From the IMG/VR virus record IMGVR_UViG_2531839532_000005, positions 1 through 8,731 of that record: 8,731 nucleotides of DNA. One strand, written 5' to 3'. Shown here piece by piece: positions 342 through 8,731 of the stretch. The translations under genes were made by a program, and so were the position numbers. The DNA comes from a virus. Its lineage: Duplodnaviria > Heunggongvirae > Uroviricota > Caudoviricetes. The notes beneath the pieces were generated by a model that saw only the letters and a list, made by a program, of their open reading frames with translations, had not been told where the DNA came from and did not search any database. The first letter of the stretch is position 1. Each line of letters starts with the position of its first letter.

Positions 342-426
342 GTTCACAGATAAAACACTCTCCAGGAAACCCGGGGCGGTTCATTTTGTTTACTGATGCC
401 GTAGAAAGGTCTCTTAGCAAGAATAA
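1..426 (+). mobile_element. Right-hand portion of an IS3-family insertion sequence; exact right terminus not determined (somewhere between about 345 and 426)
   Basis: The OrfB 3' end is followed by a short non-coding tail. IS3-family elements normally end a few tens of bp after the orfB stop. The hairpin at 427-445 and the fall in GC beyond about 460 look like they belong to the neighbouring gene, not the IS. I could not recognise the terminal inverted repeat by eye. Confidence 0.45.
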
Positions 427-445
427 CCCCAGTTTAACACTGGGG
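427..445 (-). terminator. Putative intrinsic terminator for the low-GC gene 463-1128 (stem CCCCAGT, loop TTAAC, stem ACTGGGG)
   Basis: Perfect 7-bp inverted repeat 427-433/439-445 located 18 nt downstream of the minus-strand stop at 463-465. On the minus-strand transcript the hairpin is followed by UUAUUCUUGCU (U-rich). Confidence 0.35.
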
Positions 446-462
446 TTGCTTGCAACAGAGCG

Positions 463-1128
463 TCAATTTTTAAGAGCACTGATACAGAAAAATTGCATGA
501 CATTTTTCTTTATTGATTTAAATAAGCTAAACATTGTGACAGGTTCAAAGCTAGTTAACTCGATGAATTCCTCTCTCATTTGAGAAAGTAACAGCTGACG
601 TACTGATTCAATTTCTGCTGTTTGTTTTCTCAAATATCTTGAGAAAACAAGTAGTTCATCAGCTGTTTTGTTTTGGCCATTTATAAACGTAACAGGTTGC
701 CCTAGCTTAGATATGAGAAAAAATTGGTTAATTTTATCAAGTAATGGTGGAATTATTTTTTTCCATTCAGCCCATTCTTTTTCACGATGAAACTCCAGAC
801 TGTGCTGACATGTTCTTAGTTGCTGCATATCAATCGCCCAGACCTCACTCTCATCGAGGCAATCTTTCCATTTGCTAATTACATTAATGTCAAATTTTTT
901 GTTCGGTAGATAATTATCTTTGGCGTGCGCTTCCAGTATAGAGGCAAGAGTACCTGTATATTGCATCAAATTGGTAGATGCTCGGTTTACTAGCTCTGAT
1001 ATTCGATCTAGTTGAGTTGTTCTAATCTCAAGTGCTTTCTTTTTACGTTCATTTCGTAAAGCAAAATATGCAGCAAGGCAGACTGCAGCAACTGTGGCTG
1101 CTGGTGCGATAAAAATTTGCATATTCAT
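463..1128 (-). CDS. Hypothetical protein, 221 aa: N-terminal single transmembrane/signal-anchor segment followed by a charged, probably helical domain; low-GC orphan (moron-like) gene
   Basis: ORF on the minus strand. I prefer the ATG at 1128-1126 (MNMQIFIAPAATVAAVCLAAYFAL...) because AGGA sits about 8 nt upstream, whereas the ORF-track start at 1152 has no RBS. Hydrophobic stretch IFIAPAATVAAVCLAAYFAL is followed by RNERKKK (positive-inside). G+C is roughly 35-40% on sampled 60-nt stretches versus about 55-60% in the flanking tail genes. No recognisable catalytic motif. Confidence 0.65.
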   Translation of the reverse strand: MNMQIFIAPAATVAAVCLAAYFALRNERKKKALEIRTTQLDRISELVNRASTNLMQYTGTLASILEAHAKDNYLPNKKFDINVISKWKDCLDESEVWAIDMQQLRTCQHSLEFHREKEWAEWKKIIPPLLDKINQFFLISKLGQPVTFINGQNKTADELLVFSRYLRKQTAEIESVRQLLLSQMREEFIELTSFEPVTMFSLFKSIKKNVMQFFCISALKN

Positions 1129-1322
1129 AACATGGATCCTTTGACATGGCATTTATGGGGGCTATTTCAGCAGTAATCATTTGTGTGTAAATTTGTTTGC
1201 TACAAATTAACATATTCTAATGTAAGGCTCTTCTGATTTTGACACCGGGTAGGCTGTCAGATTGGTTATGATTCTTGCTGTAAGCGCGTTAGCAAATGTC
1301 AGGGCTAATGCATCTAAGTTGT

Positions 1323-2432
1323 TTACTCTGTTTCTGCTATCCATTCCGGGATTTTGGCTTCAAGCTCAAGCTGCGTGGTAAAGCCACTGTTATCAATGGT
1401 GTGCTCGGCTTTTGCAATGATCCAGTCCTGATTATCAATCTCGCTTTTAAATCCTGTTACCGTGCCATGCATTTCGGGGTAGAGCTCTGCTCGTCCACGT
1501 GCCAGCGTGATGGAAAATGATGCGGCTCCGCGTTGTAGCTGCTGCCACTTTGCCGCCGCTGCGCGTCTTGCTGCCTGCTCGTTCTGATAAGTTTTGCGTA
1601 ACACAAACACATTGCCTTCCGCGCCTTCCATATAATCACCTTCACGGCTGCTGCTTTTCTCTTTTTTCGGTTTTGGCGGTTTGCGGCGTTTCACGCTGAC
1701 TTTTTTCTTTTTCCCGTAATTAAGATCAAGCCAGTAAGCGCGTACCCCCGTATACGCCTCGCGGTCAGCAATGCGGAACTGATGGCGATCGCCGCTGCTG
1801 CGTGTGATGGCGAACGATGGCAACGGCTGGCCCTGTGCGTTCACGCCACCGCCGGGCATGATGAATAACAGATTGCCGCTTTTTACCGTGGTGATTGCGC
1901 CCAGCATTTCCGCCATGCGCGTAAGGAAGGACATATCGCTTTCTTCGGTCTGGTCGGCGTGGTCGATTTCGATATCCATCAGCATTTCGCTGATTTGCGG
2001 TTTCAGACCATACCGATGAGCGATGGCGGATACCACACGCTCAACGGTCACATCATGCCAGGACACCTCACGTTTAACGTTAAATTCATCCCGAAAATCT
2101 GCGCTTCTGGCTGAAACGGTCAGCCTGTCCGGCGGTCCTTCGTGAGCGATTTCATCAACAATGTAAGTGCCTTTTTCAGTCAGCGGTTCCCCTTTCCAGC
2201 CAATGAGAACCGTCAGACGCGCGCCCCGTGGCGGTAGCTGCAACTGACCATCCGCATCATCCAGCGTGATGGTGAGCTGGTCCGCTTCAAATCCCCGGTT
2301 GTCGGTCAGTGACAGGCTCATCAGGCGTTCTGCCACGCCGGACAGCGTTTTACCCTCCGCGAGAATATCAAAATCCGGCATTTTCACGGGGTCTGTGCCC
2401 TGACTGAGCAATTGCATGGTGGTGTCGGTCAT
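1323..2432 (-). CDS. D: Phage late control gene D protein / tail protein D (gpD family), about 369 aa
   Basis: Minus-strand ORF. Start chosen at ATG 2432-2430 (MTDTTMQLL...) preceded by GGGAGGGAG. The ORF-track N-terminal extension up to 2564 is Arg/Pro/Ser-rich and probably non-coding. Motifs typical of gpD: RLMSLSLTDNRGFEADQLTITLDDADGQLQLPPRGARLTVLIGWKG, SARSADFR, SWHD, FLTRMAE, the lysine-rich KKKKVSVKRRKPPKPKKEK linker, YMEGAEGNVF, AKWQQLQRGAASFSITLARG, NSGFTTQLELE. Confidence 0.85.
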   Translation of the reverse strand: MTDTTMQLLSQGTDPVKMPDFDILAEGKTLSGVAERLMSLSLTDNRGFEADQLTITLDDADGQLQLPPRGARLTVLIGWKGEPLTEKGTYIVDEIAHEGPPDRLTVSARSADFRDEFNVKREVSWHDVTVERVVSAIAHRYGLKPQISEMLMDIEIDHADQTEESDMSFLTRMAEMLGAITTVKSGNLLFIMPGGGVNAQGQPLPSFAITRSSGDRHQFRIADREAYTGVRAYWLDLNYGKKKKVSVKRRKPPKPKKEKSSSREGDYMEGAEGNVFVLRKTYQNEQAARRAAAAKWQQLQRGAASFSITLARGRAELYPEMHGTVTGFKSEIDNQDWIIAKAEHTIDNSGFTTQLELEAKIPEWIAETE

Positions 2433-2589
2433 CTGCTCCCTCCCTGTGTGGCATGGTCGCATGTGCGTGCGGAGGGGGTTACTGCTTTTTGTTGTCGCCG
2501 TGGCGGGAGAACGGCGCAGGGGTGAGATTACGCGCGTGGTGGGTGATGATTGTTGCCGAATCATTTAACGGATACAAGGGGCTGAAGCT
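2433..2589. promoter_or_regulatory. Divergent intergenic region between D (-) and FI (+); candidate late-type promoter for the FI operon with an imperfect TGT-N12-ACA-like dyad at 2493-2510
   Basis: 157 bp separate the two divergent start codons. TGTcgccgtggcgggAGA at 2493-2510 matches two of three positions of the second half of the P2/P4 late-promoter dyad. GATGAT at 2545-2550 is a weak -10 candidate. The FI RBS AAGGGG lies at 2576-2581. None of this is strong; the promoter call is tentative. Confidence 0.3.
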
Positions 2590-3774
2590 ATGAGTGAAAC
2601 TCGTTTTCATGGTGCCCGTGTTACGGAAAATACCGACCTGGTAACAGCGATTAACGATGTTGATTCCAGCGTTATCGGTATCGTGGCAACGGCGGATGAT
2701 GCGGACGCGAAGCTGTTCCCGCTGAACAAGCCCACACTGCTGACCCGCGTCAATGACGTGCTGGGAAAATGCGGAACAACGGGGACGCTTTATCGTGCGC
2801 TTAAGGCCATCGCAGACCAGGTGAGCACAAAGGTGATCGTCGTTCGCGTGGCTGAACACAAAGAAGAAGACGAAAAGACGCAGGATCAACTGGTTATCGG
2901 TGGTTCTGAGGATGACGGCAGCTATACGGGGATGTATGCGCTGCTTGTTGCAGAGCAGGATGAAAGCATCGGATACCGTCCGCGTATTCTGGCCGCGCCG
3001 GAGCTGGACACGGAGGCGGTGACAAAATCCCTGTGCGTGATTGCGGGTAAACTGCGCGCATTTGTGTATGCCTCATGTCACGGCTGTAACACGATGGCTG
3101 AAGCGATTACCTACCGCCAGAAATTCAACGAACGTGAAGTGATGCTCTTATGGCCGGACTTCATCGCCTACAACCCGAAAAGGGGCGAAAACGAAACGTT
3201 CCCCGCGCCTGCTTATGCGTGCGGCCTTCGTGCGTACATTGACCATGAGCAGGGCTGGCACAAATCGCTGTCCAACGTTCCGGTTAAAAATGTGCTGGGG
3301 ATGTCGAGGCATGTGTTCTGGTCGTTGCAGGCCGAAGACTGCGATGCCAACAGCCTCAACAACAAAGAAATCACGACCATTATTCGTCGCAACGGGTTCC
3401 GCTTCTGGGGCAACCGCACACCGGAAACGAACGCCTACATTTTTGAGGTGTATACCCGAACCGCACAGGTGCTGGCTGATTCAATTGCGGAAGCGCAGTT
3501 TGAAACCATCGACAGTCCACTGACGCCTGCGAACGTGAAGGATGTTATCAGTGCCATCAGGGCAAAACTGGATTCACTGGTGACTGCCGGGAAACTGATT
3601 GGCGCGGAGTGCTGGTATGACGTGGTGGATAACAGCACCACGGATTTACGTCAGGGGCGTGTGCGTATTCGCTACAAATATACGCCCGTTCCGCCACTGG
3701 AAGACATGGAGCTTTACCAGACGTTTACTGATGAATACTTTGAACCCGCATTTGCGGTGCTGGGAGGTGCCTGA
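2590..3774 (+). CDS. FI: Contractile tail sheath protein (P2 FI family), 394 aa
   Basis: ATG at 2590 with RBS AAGGGG. Length and motifs match P2-type sheath proteins (FPLNKP, KLRAF, WPDF, EQGWHK..LSNV, IRRNGFRFWGNRT, YTRTAQV, YTPVPPLE). Stop TGA 3772-3774 overlaps the next start by one base (TGATG). Confidence 0.9.
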   Translation: MSETRFHGARVTENTDLVTAINDVDSSVIGIVATADDADAKLFPLNKPTLLTRVNDVLGKCGTTGTLYRALKAIADQVSTKVIVVRVAEHKEEDEKTQDQLVIGGSEDDGSYTGMYALLVAEQDESIGYRPRILAAPELDTEAVTKSLCVIAGKLRAFVYASCHGCNTMAEAITYRQKFNEREVMLLWPDFIAYNPKRGENETFPAPAYACGLRAYIDHEQGWHKSLSNVPVKNVLGMSRHVFWSLQAEDCDANSLNNKEITTIIRRNGFRFWGNRTPETNAYIFEVYTRTAQVLADSIAEAQFETIDSPLTPANVKDVISAIRAKLDSLVTAGKLIGAECWYDVVDNSTTDLRQGRVRIRYKYTPVPPLEDMELYQTFTDEYFEPAFAVLGGA

Positions 3775-4286
3775 TGGCTGTGCCAAAACATCTTCGCTTT
3801 TTTACGCTGTTTGTGGATGGTGAAAACGAAGTGGGTAAGGTGACGTCCGTCACTTTGCCTAAGCTGACGCGCAAAACCGACAGCTACCGGGGTGGTGGCA
3901 TGATGGGGGCGGTAAGTATTGATCTCGGCCTGGACGACTCCGCGCTTGATGCGAGCTTTGTCATGGGGGGCGCAGTTCGTGCGCTGTTCCTTAAATATGG
4001 CGGCACGATTGACGGCACGCTGCTGCGTTTTGCGGGTGAATACTACACCGATGCAGAAAGCGATCTGTATGAAATCGAGATGCGCGGGCGTGTGACGGAA
4101 ATTGATATGGGGGAAGCCAAACAGGGCGAAGCCACATCACACACTTACGCTGTCAAAAACACCTACTACAAGCTGAGCGTTAACGATCGCCCGCTGTGGG
4201 AAATCGACCTGTTGAACCACATCTACCGGAAGGACGGCAAGGACATTGTGCCTGACCGTATCCGTTCCGCGCTTGGGCTTGGCTGA
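3774..4286 (+). CDS. FII: Tail tube protein (P2 FII family), 170 aa
   Basis: ATG 3774 overlapping the FI stop, with RBS GGGAGG at 3762-3767. The size (170 aa) and its position directly after the sheath gene fit P2 FII. Confidence 0.88.
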   Translation: MAVPKHLRFFTLFVDGENEVGKVTSVTLPKLTRKTDSYRGGGMMGAVSIDLGLDDSALDASFVMGGAVRALFLKYGGTIDGTLLRFAGEYYTDAESDLYEIEMRGRVTEIDMGEAKQGEATSHTYAVKNTYYKLSVNDRPLWEIDLLNHIYRKDGKDIVPDRIRSALGLG

Positions 4287-4303
4287 TAAGTAATATGCAG
4301 GCG

Positions 4304-4322
4304 GCGCAGTGCGTCGCCTCTG
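4304..4322 (+). other. Intercistronic stem-loop between tube and E (GGCGGCG-cagtg-CGUCGCC, one G-U pair), possible partial terminator or mRNA stabiliser
   Basis: 7-bp stem with a 5-nt loop seen directly in the sequence, 18 nt after the FII stop. There is no strong U-tract (UCUGACUG follows), so if functional it is more likely an attenuator or 3'-end stabiliser than a full terminator. Confidence 0.25.
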
Positions 4323-4341
4323 ACTGAAAAGGAGACAACTG

Positions 4342-4716
4342 ATGAAAGACATCGATACTGAAACCCGGAATAACACCGTGGCGGATGATGTGACGGCAGG
4401 TGAGGATATGGCTGTCGAACGTGGCGTAAAACTGACCCGACCAATTGAGCGTGGTGGCGAAAAAATCACGTATGTGGAGATCACCGGGGCTATTGAACAG
4501 GCTGGATCCCTGCGTGGTCTGTCGCTGTCTGATGTGCTGAATCTGAAAGCGGATACCATGTTCACGCTGTTGCCTCGCGTGACCTCGCCACGACTGGATG
4601 AAGTGATGATTAAAAAAATGTCGTCACGCGATTTTATTCAGTTGTGCGCTGTGGCTGTAAATTTTATGAGCGAGCCAGACTCTGGCGCGAAGAGCGTGCA
4701 GGAGACGGCAGCGTAA
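4342..4716 (+). CDS. E: Tail assembly chaperone E (gpE family), 124 aa
   Basis: ATG 4342 with RBS AAGGAG at 4328-4333. It sits between tube and tape-measure genes and is followed by an overlapping -1 frame ORF, which is the conserved chaperone arrangement. Confidence 0.85.
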   Translation: MKDIDTETRNNTVADDVTAGEDMAVERGVKLTRPIERGGEKITYVEITGAIEQAGSLRGLSLSDVLNLKADTMFTLLPRVTSPRLDEVMIKKMSSRDFIQLCAVAVNFMSEPDSGAKSVQETAA

Positions 4717-4880
4717 TCACCCTGGTGTGCTTTGAGCACATCGAAGATCTGGTGGCAGATATCGCCGCCATTTTTAACTGGTCGCCCGCCGAAATCTTCA
4801 TGATGACGCCCGGCGAAGTGGTTAGCTGGCGTGAGCGGGCGGCACTTCGCAGCGGGAATGCAGACAATGAAGACTCTTGA
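4342..4880 (+). CDS. E+E' fusion produced by programmed -1 ribosomal frameshift at the A7 run 4612-4618; E' portion roughly 4614-4880
   Basis: The -1 frame has a stop at 4611-4613 and is then open from 4614 to TGA 4878-4880. The E frame reads ATT AAA AAA ATG across seven consecutive A residues (4612-4618), a Lys-tRNA slippery site. After slipping the sequence continues ...IKK-NVVTRFYSVVRCG...NADNEDS. The E' end overlaps the start of T. Confidence 0.65.
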
Positions 4881-7674
4881 TATCCGGGTCGCTTTCAGCG
4901 CCGTTGACAGGCTGACCCGGCCTGCCGAAAACGCCCGCCGCCTGATGGGGCAGTTTGGTGACTCCATCCAGCGAACGCAGGGGGCGATCAAAAATCTCGA
5001 GCGTCAGGCGCGTTCATTTGAGCGCGCCCGTGACGCTGTCAGTAAAGCGGATGCTGGCATATTGAAAGCACGACGCCAGCTTAACGCTCTTAATCAGTTA
5101 CAACGCACGGGTACAGTGCTCAGCGAAAAACAACAAAAGCTGATGCAGCAGTTAAGCACCCGGCTTGAACGCCTGAATGAATCGCGCACACGGGAAATTC
5201 AGAAAATGCGGGAACTTGGCGGAGAGCTGAAACGCCACGGCATTTCCCTGACAGGCAGCGATAACACCATCCAGCAGGCCATCAGACGCACCGAACAGTA
5301 CAACAACCAGCTTGAACGTGAACGGCAGGCGCTTGCGCGTGTAACGCGGGCGCGTGAGCGGTATTCGCGCGCGCAGGAAACCGCGGGAAAACTGAAAACA
5401 GGTGGTGCGCTGGCAATTGGTGCGGCAGCGGCGGGCGGCTATGCTGCCGGGCGTTTTTTGCAGCCCGCGATCGGGTTCGGCAAAGAGATGTCCCGCGTTC
5501 AGGCGCTGACGCGAATCGACCAGAACAGCCCGCAGTTTAAGGCGCTGCGTGAGCAGGCATTAAAACTTGGCTCTGAAACGCAGTTCACCGCAGGCGATGC
5601 CGCCAGTGGGCAGGCATTTCTTGCAATGGCTGGCTTCACACCGCAGGCCATTCAGGCTGCGCTTCCCGGAGTGCTGAGCATGGCAACGGCTGGCGGTATG
5701 GATCTCGGCGAGACGGCAGATATTGGCTCAAATATCCTGACGCAGTTCGGCCTTTCTGCTGACCAGATGGACCGGGTCGGTGACACACTCACCGCAGCGT
5801 TTACCCGTACCAACACTGACCTTCGCGCACTGGGCGAAACCATGAAATATGCAGGTCCGGTGGCGGGTAAGCTGGGAATATCGCTGGAGCAGGCCGCAGC
5901 GATGGCTGGCGTGCTGGCGAATATGGGCATCAGAGGGAGTGATGCCGGGACGGCAATGCGTGCCAGCCTGGCTCGTCTGGCATCACCGCCAAAGGCGGCG
6001 GCAGAAGCTCTGAAAGAGCTGGGCGTGTCCGTCTCGGATGCCGGGGGCAAAATGCGCCCGATGGAGGATGTGCTGGCCGACCTTTATAAAGCCACCCGCA
6101 AATACGGGGAAGTTGACCGGGTATCGTTCTTTAAGGACATTGCCGGAGAAGAGGCTTTCACATCGTTTATGGCGCTCGTTGATGCAGCGGGTGACGGTTC
6201 CTTACCTAAACTGAGAAAAGAACTTGAAGGCGCACGCGGTGAGGCTGAACGCACAGCAAAGGTTATGGCCAACAACCTTGACGGCGATCTGAAATCACTC
6301 GGCAGTGCATGGGAAGGGTTGCGCATCCGCATTGCAGATCTGATTGACGGTCCGCTGCGTTCTGTCACGCAGTGGCTCACACGGGTGGTATCAAGGGTGA
6401 CGGCGCTGGCGCAGGCCCATCCGACACTGACGCGCCAGCTACTGATAGCAGGCGGTGCGTTGCTGGCAATGACTGCAACGGTTGGCTCGTTGTCGCTGGC
6501 TATTGGTGTGCTTGCTGGCCCGCTGGCAAAACTGCGTCTTGGTTTTTCTCTCCTGACCGGATCAATGAATGCTGTCAGGGTCCTGCCAGCACTATGGGGA
6601 ATGGTGACGGGTTCCGTTTCTTTACTGGGAGGCGCTATCGGGGCGCTGTTCAGTCCGGTCGGGTTGATTGCTGCAGCGTTTGTCGCTGCGGCGGTTCTCA
6701 TCTGGAAATACTGGGAACCCATCAAGGCGTTTTATGCCGGGGTGTTCAGTGGGATTATGGAGCGACTGGCCCCGTTGCGCGAAACCTTTGAACGGTTTGG
6801 CCCTGTTTTTGACGCAATCGGAAGCGGGATCAGCCAGGTGTTTAACTGGTTTAAATCGCTGCTGTCACCGATGGAGTCCAGCAAGGAAACGCTGGATAAA
6901 TGTACCAGTGCTGGCGAGATATTCGGTAACGTTCTTGGCGGTGCGTTACAGCTTGTTCTGACACCTGCAAAAATGCTACTGGATACGCTGGCGTGGATAC
7001 TTGAAAAACTCGGTGTGCTTCCGGATGAAGCGGAAAGGGCGCGCAAGAAAATCGAAGACGCACAGCGTGCGGCCATTCTTCAGGACAAGGTTGCCTTGCT
7101 TCAGGGGGACCTGGCGAAAATCAATCCGCCGAAGCCTGTGGAAAATGGCAATGGCACCGGAGGTGATAAACCCAAAGACAACAAACCGCTCACAGACAGC
7201 AATACCGGTACGCTACGCAGACTCAGCAAAATTGCTGATAACACAGGTAAGCTGGTTGATGAGACGAAAAAACGCATTGGCCCCGGCGATATTGTCTTTA
7301 AGAACCTGCCCCGCGCACTTGCTGTTCGTGGGGAGTGGCAGGAGCGGAAGATTGCGCAGGTCAGTAAGCCTGCTTCCGCAATCAACATCACACCCGTGGT
7401 CCCGACTCCTCTGCCTCCGGCGCTGGTCCCTGTTGTTGCGGCCAGCTCCCGCCCGGTGGCGGAGGCCATACGATCGCCAGTGGCATCAGTTCCTGCAACT
7501 TCCCGTAACCGGGAGCCTGTTGTCTCCGGATTTGGCGGTGAAATTCATGTTCATCTGCATAACGTTGTTACGCAGAATCCCCGCGAACTGGCGAAACTGG
7601 TCGGTGAAATGGTCAGGGCAGAATTGGAACGACGCGACCGTGCCGGACGTGGCAGTTTTTACGATAAAGATTGA
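4867..7674 (+). CDS. T: Tail tape measure protein (gpT family), about 935 aa
   Basis: Long ORF directly after E/E'. Start chosen at ATG 4867 (MKTLDIRV...) with GGGAA 9-10 nt upstream; ATG 4859 and the track start 4831 are alternatives. N-terminal coiled-coil-like region, a central Ala/Gly-rich domain, hydrophobic segments encoded around 6415-6715 (LLIAGGALLAMTATVGSLSLAIGVLAG..., GLIAAAFVAAAVLIW) and a Pro-rich C-terminus are all typical of tape measure proteins. Stop TGA 7672-7674. Confidence 0.85.
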   Translation: MKTLDIRVAFSAVDRLTRPAENARRLMGQFGDSIQRTQGAIKNLERQARSFERARDAVSKADAGILKARRQLNALNQLQRTGTVLSEKQQKLMQQLSTRLERLNESRTREIQKMRELGGELKRHGISLTGSDNTIQQAIRRTEQYNNQLERERQALARVTRARERYSRAQETAGKLKTGGALAIGAAAAGGYAAGRFLQPAIGFGKEMSRVQALTRIDQNSPQFKALREQALKLGSETQFTAGDAASGQAFLAMAGFTPQAIQAALPGVLSMATAGGMDLGETADIGSNILTQFGLSADQMDRVGDTLTAAFTRTNTDLRALGETMKYAGPVAGKLGISLEQAAAMAGVLANMGIRGSDAGTAMRASLARLASPPKAAAEALKELGVSVSDAGGKMRPMEDVLADLYKATRKYGEVDRVSFFKDIAGEEAFTSFMALVDAAGDGSLPKLRKELEGARGEAERTAKVMANNLDGDLKSLGSAWEGLRIRIADLIDGPLRSVTQWLTRVVSRVTALAQAHPTLTRQLLIAGGALLAMTATVGSLSLAIGVLAGPLAKLRLGFSLLTGSMNAVRVLPALWGMVTGSVSLLGGAIGALFSPVGLIAAAFVAAAVLIWKYWEPIKAFYAGVFSGIMERLAPLRETFERFGPVFDAIGSGISQVFNWFKSLLSPMESSKETLDKCTSAGEIFGNVLGGALQLVLTPAKMLLDTLAWILEKLGVLPDEAERARKKIEDAQRAAILQDKVALLQGDLAKINPPKPVENGNGTGGDKPKDNKPLTDSNTGTLRRLSKIADNTGKLVDETKKRIGPGDIVFKNLPRALAVRGEWQERKIAQVSKPASAINITPVVPTPLPPALVPVVAASSRPVAEAIRSPVASVPATSRNREPVVSGFGGEIHVHLHNVVTQNPRELAKLVGEMVRAELERRDRAGRGSFYDKD

Positions 7675-7686
7675 GGAGTCATGGCC

Positions 7687-8175
7687 ATGATGATGATCTA
7701 CGGCATGTTTGTTTTTGAGCTGCGCACATTGCCGCATCAGCAGTTACAGCAAAATAAAAGCTGGCGGCATGTGAAAAATGAACGCGTTAACCGTTCAGCA
7801 AGCTGGCAGTATATCGGGGCAGGCGATGATCGCATCGTGCTTTCTGGTGTGCTTTATCCTGAAATCACAGGTGGCGAAGTGTCGCTGTCGCTGCTGACCA
7901 CGCAGGCGTATACAGGACGCCCCTGGCCTCTGATTGATGGCGTCGGACAGATTTACGGCATGTATGTACTGACTGAAACGAATACGACCCGCTCCGAGTT
8001 TGATCGCTACGGTAAGGCGAAAAAGATAGAATTTTCACTGACTCTTGAACGCTGTGATGAGGATTTGCGGGAGCGCCTGCAATCCTCATCGTTCAGTGAT
8101 ATGCTGTCCGGCTTCAAAGATAAGGTCACATCATCCCTTAACAGCGCGGCCAGCTCCGTTAAAGGGCTGTTTTGA
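7687..8175 (+). CDS. U: Tail protein U (gpU family), about 162 aa
   Basis: ORF directly after T. RBS GAGGAG at 7673-7678 favours ATG 7687 (MMMIYGMFVFELRTLP...) over 7681 (only 2 nt spacing) or 7690. Size and position match P2 gpU. Stop TGA 8173-8175. Confidence 0.85.
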   Translation: MMMIYGMFVFELRTLPHQQLQQNKSWRHVKNERVNRSASWQYIGAGDDRIVLSGVLYPEITGGEVSLSLLTTQAYTGRPWPLIDGVGQIYGMYVLTETNTTRSEFDRYGKAKKIEFSLTLERCDEDLRERLQSSSFSDMLSGFKDKVTSSLNSAASSVKGLF

Positions 8176-8182
8176 TTAACGC

Positions 8183-8212
8183 AAAACCGCTAATGGTCAG
8201 ATTAGCGGTTTT
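8183..8212. terminator. Bidirectional intrinsic terminator between convergent U and invertase genes: perfect 12-bp stem AAAACCGCTAAT / ATTAGCGGTTTT with 6-nt loop GGTCAG
   Basis: The perfect inverted repeat is seen directly. On the + strand it is followed by CATTTTCC (U-rich). The right arm contains the invertase stop codon (TTA at 8202-8204 on +) and its last four codons. Confidence 0.6.
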
Positions 8213-8731
8213 CATTTTCCTGAGTCTGCCTGGTTGTTTCTTCAGCCTGTATATCGCCTACAGGGTGATAACGATAAATCGTCGATATGCCGATGTCGTA
8301 AATGATCGCCAGTTGTTTCCTGTCATGACCGTTTTTAATCAGCCTCGCTATTTGCTCGTGTTGTTCTTTTGTCAACTTCGGGCGACGTCCGCCAATGCGT
8401 CCTTGTGCGCGTGCTGCTGCCAGCCCGGCCAGTGTACGCTCTACAATTAATTCACGTTCCATTTCGGCTAAAGCTCCCATGACGTGAAAAAAGAAACGCC
8501 CCATGGGTGTTGATGTGTCAATGCTGTCCGTTAGACTACGGAAATTAACACCTTTTTCCCGCAATTCCTCAATAAGCGTGATCAGGTGTTTCATACTTCT
8601 GCCCAGTCTGTCCAGCTTCCAGACAACCAGCGTATCTCCTTCTGATAGCGTTCTGAGCAGTTTTTTCAATCCCGGTCTGGCTGATTTCGTTCCGCTGATT
8701 TTATCTTCAAAAATCAGTTCACATCCTGCGC
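8202..8731 (-). CDS. Serine recombinase, Hin/Gin/Pin/Cin-type DNA invertase; N-terminal 25-30 residues including the catalytic serine lie beyond the window end
   Basis: The minus-strand frame is open to the window edge. The translation ...CELIFEDKISGTKSARPGLKKLLRTLSEGDTLVVWKLDRLGRSMKHLITLIEELREKGVNFRSLTDSIDTSTPMGRFFFHVMGALAEMERELIVERTLAGLAAARAQGRIGGRRPKLTKEQHEQIARLIKNGHDRKQLAIIYDIGISTIYRYHP matches the resolvase catalytic domain and C-terminal HTH of Hin-family invertases almost motif for motif. The ORF-track start at 8669 is an internal Met. Confidence 0.9.
   Translation of the reverse strand, partial: AGCELIFEDKISGTKSARPGLKKLLRTLSEGDTLVVWKLDRLGRSMKHLITLIEELREKGVNFRSLTDSIDTSTPMGRFFFHVMGALAEMERELIVERTLAGLAAARAQGRIGGRRPKLTKEQHEQIARLIKNGHDRKQLAIIYDIGISTIYRYHPVGDIQAEETTRQTQENENR

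Follow-up and report, generated by a model that had tools for sequence, protein, structure and literature searches.

The stretch of DNA analyzed here, called the window in what follows, comprises 8,731 nucleotides and is matched exactly by the chromosome of Escherichia coli strain 300709, where it forms part of a P2-related prophage of the P88-like group (matched records: Xuanwuvirus/Gemsvirus) that adjoins ihfA. The subject of this analysis is an orphan gene on its minus strand (463–1128), which codes for a 221-residue protein with a predicted membrane anchor and which lies between the tail gene D and ogr. Together with the sequences on either side, from about 380 to 1322, this gene is a self-contained accessory cassette of the moron type, made up of a 5′ region, the gene and a hairpin, and located at the D/ogr junction; a moron, in the sense of Hendrix and colleagues, is an autonomous accessory unit residing in a prophage. 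The gene is real, is under selection and is not essential for the phage, and the cassette moves horizontally, alone, among unrelated mobile elements. The features of the window are as follows.

1 to ~380, plus strand: 3′ end of an insertion sequence (IS) element of the IS3 family, with rve_3/rve_2 integrase-core matches and the PGAP annotation 'IS3 family transposase' with programmed frameshift
381–462, minus strand: 3′ flank of the cassette, with a terminator-like hairpin at 425–447 (9-bp stem with 5 G-C pairs, 5-nt loop)
463–1128, minus strand: the candidate orphan gene, coding sequence of the 221-residue protein WP_096962397.1, stop codon included (open reading frame list, PGAP, comparison)
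466–1023, minus strand: helical-bundle domain, residues 36–221, predicted cytoplasmic (AlphaFold2 model)
763–810, minus strand: motif C.H.L.FHR..W
1024–1056, minus strand: basic juxtamembrane motif RNExxKKxLE, residues 25–35, in which N26, K30 and K31 are invariant
1057–1116, minus strand: transmembrane (TM) anchor, residues 5–24, Kyte-Doolittle value 2.11, conserved face P9/T12/V16/A20/L24
1129–1322, minus strand: AT-rich 5′ region of 194 bp that travels with the gene, G+C content (GC) 38.7%
1137–1141, minus strand: ribosome-binding site AAGGA, 8 nt 5′ of the ATG, read from the sequence (AGAGGA in the Kluyvera orthologue)
1323–2432, minus strand: tail gene D
1460–1431, minus strand: sigma-70-like site GTAACA-18-GATAAT within the 3′ end of D, the only such site on this strand
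2590–8175, plus strand: FI (tail sheath), FII (tube), E/E′, T (tape measure) and U
8202 to the end of the window (8731), minus strand: DNA invertase gene of the Hin/Gin type

The Orphan Gene and Its Signals

A first-pass annotation of the window had read 463–1128 as a minus-strand open reading frame (ORF) of 221 codons with markedly low GC, its own ribosome-binding site, a hairpin beyond its 3′ end, an N-terminal TM anchor and a helical domain without any recognizable motif, and all of these points are borne out here. The longest possible ORF extends to 1152 (229 residues); the PGAP annotation also gives 463–1128, and ATG 1128 can be taken as the start, since in the orthologue from Kluyvera the upstream extension is interrupted by a stop codon and the in-frame ATG at 1152 is not conserved, and an A(A/G)AGGA box is kept there 8 nt before the ATG. 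That the candidate is not a chance ORF is indicated by three observations: a stop-free frame of 229 codons at such AT content has a probability of about 7e-8 per start (our own arithmetic); comparison with the Kluyvera orthologue, which is 73% identical, gives a ratio of nonsynonymous to synonymous substitutions (dN/dS) of 0.25 at a dS of 0.67, that is, purifying selection; and 54 of the 58 copies present in complete E. coli genomes are full length. GC is 35.7%, and 28.4% at third codon positions, against 50–57% and 0.56–0.63, respectively, in five tail genes of the window (D, FI, FII, T and U); the low value is confined to the clade of E. coli and Kluyvera, the other clades of the family having 44–54% GC. 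The window allele codes for Leu142 (codon at 703–705), as do JB2 and one IMG/VR contig; the position is occupied by proline in 9 of 10 other close E. coli copies and in 20 of 26 family members, and falls in a low-confidence loop of the structural model (see below).

The hairpin, noted in the first pass at 427–445, is real and spans 425–447, with a folding energy of -26.7 kcal/mol in context and z = -5.1 against shuffled sequences; its 3′ tract, ATTCTTGCTA, is a weak T-tract, and for this reason the structure passes a terminator scan just marginally. It is present in the copies of phage 520873 and JB2 and absent from P88, in which the slot is empty, and the Kluyvera copy has a different hairpin lacking a sense-strand T-tract. 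On the 5′ side, the region 1129–1322 contains a -10-like TAGAAT (1219–1214), from which a transcription start about 7 nt downstream of 1214 is predicted but which is unaccompanied by a convincing -35, and a block, GAATATGTTAATTTGT, that is conserved with the lambdoid copy of Kluyvera, at a distance similar to that of a block found in distant clades; in three unrelated elements carrying distant family members, 160–260 bp of upstream non-coding sequence travel with the gene and contain the invariant GCTATAGT, some 90 nt 5′ of the ATG. The Ogr-type late promoter motif TGT-N12-ACA occurs nowhere in the window. In phages with an empty slot, the sigma-70-like site at 1460–1431 would lie about 150 bp upstream of ogr; here the two are kept apart by the cargo gene with its hairpin. 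Should this D-internal site serve as the promoter of ogr in phages with an empty slot, the cargo would separate promoter from gene.

The D/ogr Junction as a Cargo Slot

The orphan gene had initially been taken to stand in place of ogr, at the very end of the prophage, and in this respect the first-pass annotation has to be corrected. In strain 300709 ogr is present 1.2 kb further on, just outside the window, behind the IS3-family element of about 1.3 kb whose insertion between the candidate gene and ogr accounts for its absence from the window; the prophage thus continues past the candidate gene. In the IS-free JB2, whose copy is 100% identical, and in the enteropathogenic E. coli (EPEC) strain E2348/69, the order is D, candidate gene, ogr, hok/gef, ihfA. 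By comparison with JB2 the IS ends at window position ~379; the C-terminus of its transposase ends at 341 and its right end lies at about 378–388, which puts the insertion point 25–30 bp into the cassette's left flank. Beyond the IS3 element follow ogr and a hok/gef gene (locus L001, 18740–20341), and the element cuts ogr off from everything upstream; a copy of ISEc20 (IS110-like) lies between hok and ihfA in the same strain.

The boundaries of the cassette are set by the empty state. In P88 the D stop codon is about 40 bp from the ribosome-binding site of ogr and the cassette is absent; alignment with this phage shows an insertion of ~968 bp exactly at the D/ogr junction, with the D stop codon as its right boundary. 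The cassette is likewise missing from Chuche, P884B11, PhiR44_2 and Shae_phiSM. The occupancy of the junction was surveyed with a composite query, in which hok and ogr were fused directly to D, against 5,426 complete E. coli genomes: hok, ogr and D occur together in 855 of them (about 16%), and in an evenly spaced sample of 31 full-length matches the slot is empty in 25, the remaining six holding one of four different, unrelated single genes. The candidate gene itself is found in 58 of the 5,426 genomes. The four cargoes are listed below.

Candidate gene: +968 bp
261-residue DUF2971 protein, opposite strand: +1,062 bp; PADLOC single-gene candidate PDC-S31, E = 5e-27
356-residue PIN_12 protein: +1,287 bp; E = 1e-20
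340-residue protein, opposite strand: +1,293 bp; weakly HEPN-like (HEPN_RiboL-PSP, sub-threshold, E = 1.2e-4)

The tabulation shows that the gene is not conserved throughout the related prophages. The different cargoes share short flanking stretches that have no counterpart in the empty site, which fits an exchange of cargo by recombination. Two hallmarks of a moron are found at this position, namely presence or absence among close relatives at the same junction and a composition differing from that of the flanks, and the initial description of a compositionally foreign accessory gene is thus upheld, as is that of a locus in flux. In addition to the IS3 element of the window, an IS3-family element disrupts the candidate gene at about nt 394 in several E. 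coli (165, 779, CREC-591 and others), IS1A is found within the region from D to the gene in other strains (AR_0118, AR_0128), and the copy of phage 520873 is frameshifted; such repeated damage could reflect a cost of carriage, or nothing more than a target rich in AT.

According to published surveys, the main hotspots of P2 lie in two places, from gpA to the portal gene and among the tail or late genes; none of these surveys names the D/ogr junction, which had not been singled out before as a slot. In common with the cargo of the described hotspots of P2-like prophages (P2 old, tin and fun(Z); Rousset et al. 2022, PMC9122126), the candidate is non-essential and compositionally foreign, occupies a fixed junction of P2-type genes, is present or absent among close relatives and is swapped for unrelated cargo; it differs from them in lying at D/ogr rather than at the gpA-portal or the tail-fiber/Z-fun site, and in resembling none of the cargo described so far, by sequence or by profile. 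With the PDC-S31 (DUF2971), PIN_12 and HEPN-like genes the candidate shares the insertion point, part of the flanks and the format of a single-gene cassette of 1.0–1.3 kb, but those genes code for soluble proteins with nuclease or defense-candidate domains, whereas the candidate is an unrelated membrane protein without a recognizable domain.

A Rare Protein Family

The candidate belongs to a previously undescribed family, restricted to the Enterobacteriaceae. A word-indexed search returned 7 clusters; an exhaustive hidden Markov model (HMM) search of 1.84 billion representatives gave 23 at E ≤ 1e-3, nearly all of 215–235 residues, and a second HMM search based on a broader alignment yielded 30 clusters, every one of them from Enterobacteriaceae and carrying the annotation 'hypothetical'. 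Elsewhere, the family has 4 matches in a collection of one genome per species, and occurs in 5 of 72,556 plasmids and in 15 viral contigs. The candidate has no significant match in Pfam, NCBIfam, PHROGs or PADLOC, and nothing significant was obtained for 26 family members in Pfam, PADLOC and PHROGs; sequence and profile searches of the PDB gave nothing. In PHROGs v4, which is expected to cover P2 fun, tin and old, Sie proteins and spanins, a single member has a marginal match (E = 0.0037) to an unnamed 'membrane protein' PHROG. No homology to a housekeeping or structural protein emerged from the profile searches, and structure searches gave generic bundles; the protein accessions are mentioned in no paper found.

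Fifteen positions are invariant across the 26 members, whose mutual identity can be as low as 20%. On the conserved face of the TM helix, T12, A20 and L24 are invariant, V16 is found in 22 and P9 in 25 of the 26 members; the juxtamembrane motif follows, the candidate having RNERKKK directly after the hydrophobic segment. In the soluble domain the invariant residues are Q108, H114, R115, W122, L129, L166, R177, L180 and F213. Assignment as a HEPN nuclease (Rx4-6H) was considered and rejected: R115 follows H114, no conserved arginine lies 4–6 residues before the histidine, and no HEPN profile is matched.

Predicted Topology and Structure

The second-best hydrophobic segment of the window protein has a Kyte-Doolittle value of 0.93, which leaves a single TM segment. 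In nearly all of the 26 members the N-terminal flank of this helix is neutral or acidic and the flank that follows it is basic; read by the positive-inside rule, this pattern predicts a cytoplasmic location of the large domain (N-out/C-in). The protein is thus predicted to be a bitopic inner-membrane protein, with 4–7 residues outside, one TM helix and a cytoplasmic four-helix-bundle domain of ~190 residues.

An AlphaFold2 model computed from five close sequences was poor, with a predicted local distance difference test score (pLDDT) of 62.6; a second one, from 26 sequences, is usable (pLDDT 79.2, predicted TM-score (pTM) 0.66, five models in agreement) and has six helices, of which a long one, residues 3–71, would run from the membrane into an antiparallel helical bundle. 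What structure searches retrieved were bundles designed de novo and four-helix sensor domains, with identities of 4–14%; among viral structures, Foldseek had no match better than E = 0.17. The resemblance to the 4HB_MCP sensor domains of chemoreceptors and histidine kinases (6–10% identity, no Pfam 4HB match) is generic, since de novo designed bundles score equally; moreover, 4HB_MCP domains are periplasmic and lie between two TM helices, whereas the candidate has one helix and a domain predicted to be cytoplasmic. Identification as an i-spanin (Rz/LysB) was also rejected. Proteins of this type are encoded in the lysis cassette along with an o-spanin partner and have an N-in/C-out topology and a periplasmic coiled coil; the candidate gene is situated between D and ogr, JB2 encodes LysB and LysC elsewhere, and the charge distribution predicts N-out/C-in.

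Genomic Contexts of the Family

All the contexts examined, about 14 distinct ones, are mobile elements or islands, and the family gene is always solitary. The Kluyvera orthologue is carried by a lambdoid prophage, in whose nin region it adjoins a colicin-like gene; that region (locus L022, 5077–6652) codes for a 408-residue protein with a colicin pore-forming domain and, on the opposite strand, has an ORF of 100 codons, an immunity-like arrangement. The Citrobacter braakii copy is found in a lambdoid early region. Homologues with 35% identity occur in two lambdoid backbones directly downstream of the antiterminator gene Q and upstream of the lysis genes, a slot that is a classic moron position; here an 871-bp cassette (7830–8700) is 99% identical between the two backbones (L042 vs L043/L044), which have different Q and nin genes and share nothing else in the loci compared, and this indicates a very recent exchange of the single-gene unit.

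Outside phages, two copies are carried by integrative and conjugative elements (ICEs), one within the cluster of transfer genes and the other immediately following hipA, and three by Rep3 plasmids, where they adjoin the rep/par (Rep3/ParA) genes. In a Pseudescherichia chromosome (L007, 6001–9199) and in a Klebsiella plasmid (L009, 6001–9233), the family gene precedes a SMODS+S_4TM pair (CBASS-like, see below) by ~500 bp, with KAP nucleoside triphosphatase (NTPase), CAP12-TIR, RES and nSTAND genes nearby; the K. aerogenes copy belongs to an integrase island at smpB, together with a KAP NTPase and an SMC-like ATPase. A PFGI-1-type ICE of Salmonella Infantis SARB27 (L024, 6001–7174) retains a 35-codon remnant of the family gene after hipA, followed by a gene for an Mrr-type restriction endonuclease, and the same post-hipA slot of another ICE (L014) contains an intact member; in SARB27 the restriction gene has displaced the family gene.

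Three associations suggested by these neighborhoods were discarded. A fusion of the N-terminal module to a restriction endonuclease is not what the Salmonella ICE contains, the Mrr gene being separate from the 35-codon remnant and in another frame. A functional link with a cyclic-oligonucleotide-based antiphage signaling system (CBASS) is not supported, as the adjacency is limited to two related contexts of the ~14, the spacer is not conserved, and the two modules have different nucleotide identities (76% vs 86%). Finally, there is no sign of a toxin-antitoxin module: no small ORF in its flanks is conserved across contexts, and no Rfam family is matched.

The Prophage of Strain 300709

The neighboring gene D is intact and codes for a 369-residue tail/baseplate hub protein (Phage_GPD, E = 3e-17), identical over 369/369 residues to the full-length annotated D protein of another genome. 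Over 1323–2564, PGAP gives D as a 266-residue 'VgrG/Pvc8 family' protein together with a spurious partial ORF on the opposite strand; given the intact frame and its identity with the annotated D, the short version is an annotation artefact and not a truncation. The block FI-FII-E-T-U is divergent from D (window 1323–8175 including D), and the same is observed in phages P88, 520873 and 500465-2; in P2 itself, FI through D and ogr all point in one direction. Being common to these phages, the divergent arrangement is a feature of the lineage and no local accident.

In strain 300709 the baseplate gene V directly adjoins a shortened gene M for the terminase small subunit (L001, 33723–35067). In the intact relative JB2, S, R, LysC, LysB, endolysin, holin, X and L lie between V and M (L002, 33345–37872); the prophage of the window, from which these genes have gone, is thus defective, and the IS3 insertion is an additional hit. 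The Hin/Gin-type invertase gene adjoins the tail-fiber genes (window 8202–8731; L001/L002, 28200–31900), and the segment of tail-fiber and assembly genes is inverted between 300709 and JB2, as expected of an invertible host-range segment.

Possible Functions

The genomic associations described above point towards an anti-phage or conflict function. A role in conflict between mobile elements, above all the protection of the lysogen from other phages, appears to be the most likely one, with a probability of roughly 0.5; it fits best with the occurrence of the family on mobile elements only, with its alternation with nuclease, defense-candidate and restriction genes in two slots (D/ogr and the post-hipA site), with the neighbors of the three islands and with the success rate of hotspot cargo. 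As to the latter, phage protection was obtained with 6 of 8 randomly chosen unknown P4-hotspot loci, and 15–32% of unknown P2 proteins have a machine-learning defense signal (PMC13586616). The candidate is therefore a reasonable one for a new defense family, yet it is among many such candidates.

Several observations weigh against this assignment. Recognizable defense islands make up only 3–4 of the contexts, and three copies are simply found beside rep/par genes of plasmids. The great rarity and narrow range of the family are uncommon in a defense of broad usefulness. In PADLOC-DB v2.0.0, including its PDC candidates, the best match is REase_II at E = 0.023, over the TM region only, and none of the 26 members reaches E ≤ 0.01; the accessions are absent from the DefensePredictor supplements examined. 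A strict sigma-70 consensus scan of 1129–1322 yielded no site, and there is no convincing promoter directly upstream of the gene. The fold class is clear in the model, and it is a generic helical bundle carrying no functional information, and the predicted topology derives from the positive-inside rule alone. Moreover, in most known superinfection-exclusion proteins the functional part is on the periplasmic side; for the candidate the opposite is predicted.

Should the protein serve in conflict, membrane-acting abortive infection is the favored way in which it might do so, albeit at well below even odds. The conserved face of its helix would hold the protein in the membrane, either in oligomeric form or bound to a membrane protein of the host; the cytoplasmic bundle, with the invariant Q108, H114, R115, W122 and R177, may recognize an infection cue; the outcome would be a loss of membrane integrity or potential (abortive infection, favored), or else infection would be stopped at an early step associated with the membrane. 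Abortive infection is favored over classical entry exclusion because almost nothing of the protein is predicted to be periplasmic and the TM face is its most conserved part. Like lambda RexB and the TM effectors of CBASS, retron and Pycsar systems, the candidate is predicted to be an inner-membrane protein and is encoded by prophages and mobile elements; the conservation of its TM helix suggests oligomerization, and twice the gene adjoins a SMODS+S_4TM pair. Those effectors are, however, multi-pass or associated with a separate sensor, whereas the candidate is single-pass and solitary and shows no homology to them, so that it would have to sense and act alone; the SMODS adjacency, for its part, is seen in only 2 of the ~14 contexts and the two modules have separate evolutionary histories.

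The main alternative, though an unlikely one, is a role unrelated to phages, in which the protein would be a membrane-tethered regulator or adaptor serving the element that carries it (maintenance, replication, partition or control of induction), or a lysogenic-conversion factor acting on the host envelope. The immediate proximity of the three plasmid copies to Rep3/ParA genes, the location of the ICE copies in or beside transfer and replication modules, and the resemblance of the four-helix bundle to sensor and adaptor domains would suit such a role, as would the presence of pathotypes such as EPEC E2348/69 among the carriers. The same cassette, however, is found in classic moron slots of phages that have no connection with replication, is absent from most close relatives of every type of element, and alternates in the same slots with nuclease, defense-candidate and restriction genes.

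Superinfection exclusion in the strict sense, whereby the conserved TM helix would act on an inner-membrane component of the host that is used for DNA translocation and block genome entry, or another early envelope step, of incoming phages or of another mobile element without killing the cell, is quite improbable as well. A single, small, prophage-borne membrane protein with no co-encoded partner is what would be expected, and the TM helix with its juxtamembrane motif is the most conserved part of the family, which suggests a specific intramembrane partner conserved across the Enterobacteriaceae; the likeness to T4 Imm/Sp, HK97 gp15 and P22 SieA extends to their being small, membrane-anchored products of single genes lying outside the essential modules. 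Yet just 4–7 residues are predicted to be periplasmic, the bulk of the candidate being placed in the cytoplasm and that of the known proteins in the periplasm; no similarity was detected in PHROGs, a library that should cover the described phage exclusion proteins; and, in a further departure from those proteins, the family also occurs on plasmids, ICEs and chromosomal islands.

It is improbable, and more so, that the gene is toxin-like, selfish or decaying, a membrane-active hitch-hiker of little benefit to host or phage. Such an origin would agree with the repeated IS and frameshift damage (IS3 at nt 394 in several strains, the frameshift of phage 520873), with P142L of the window allele at a mostly conserved proline and with the defective state of the prophage that carries it; it is contradicted by a dN/dS of 0.25 over a dS of 0.67, by the 54 intact copies among 58, by fifteen invariant positions among members sharing only 20–30% identity and by the recent spread of 99%-identical cassettes between phages, and no antitoxin-like partner, whether ORF or RNA, was found. 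Lastly, a component of the virion, of tail assembly or of lysis (e.g., spanin- or holin-like), as might be supposed from the strand shared with the adjoining tail gene D and from the superficially i-spanin-like combination of an N-terminal anchor with long helices, is essentially excluded by the distribution of the gene, which is absent from most phages of the same genus, viable isolates all the same, and occurs on plasmids, ICEs and islands; furthermore, the lysis cassette of JB2 already has holin, endolysin, LysB and LysC, no PHROG is matched, and the predicted topology is opposite to that of i-spanins.

Implications

Returning to a role in conflict between elements, we tentatively propose, at somewhat less than even odds, that the candidate is the founding member of a family of single-protein, membrane-anchored immune or exclusion systems, in which the bundle would act as sensor and the TM helix would oligomerize or grip a host protein, the ~0.9-kb cassette being passed among P2-like and lambdoid phages, ICEs and plasmids of enterobacteria; D/ogr would then be an uncatalogued minor defense hotspot. 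If the protein is protective, the catalogue of defenses would gain a very small, single-gene, membrane-based system of an unrecognized fold family, and the D/ogr junction of P88-like prophages would be marked as a cargo slot that takes four or more alternative single genes and occurs in about 16% of the complete genomes of E. coli; if it is not, the gene would be one more example of the many uncharacterized prophage morons. The combination of rarity, tight taxonomic range and promiscuous transfer makes the family a clean case of minimal cassettes shuttling among phages, plasmids and ICEs.

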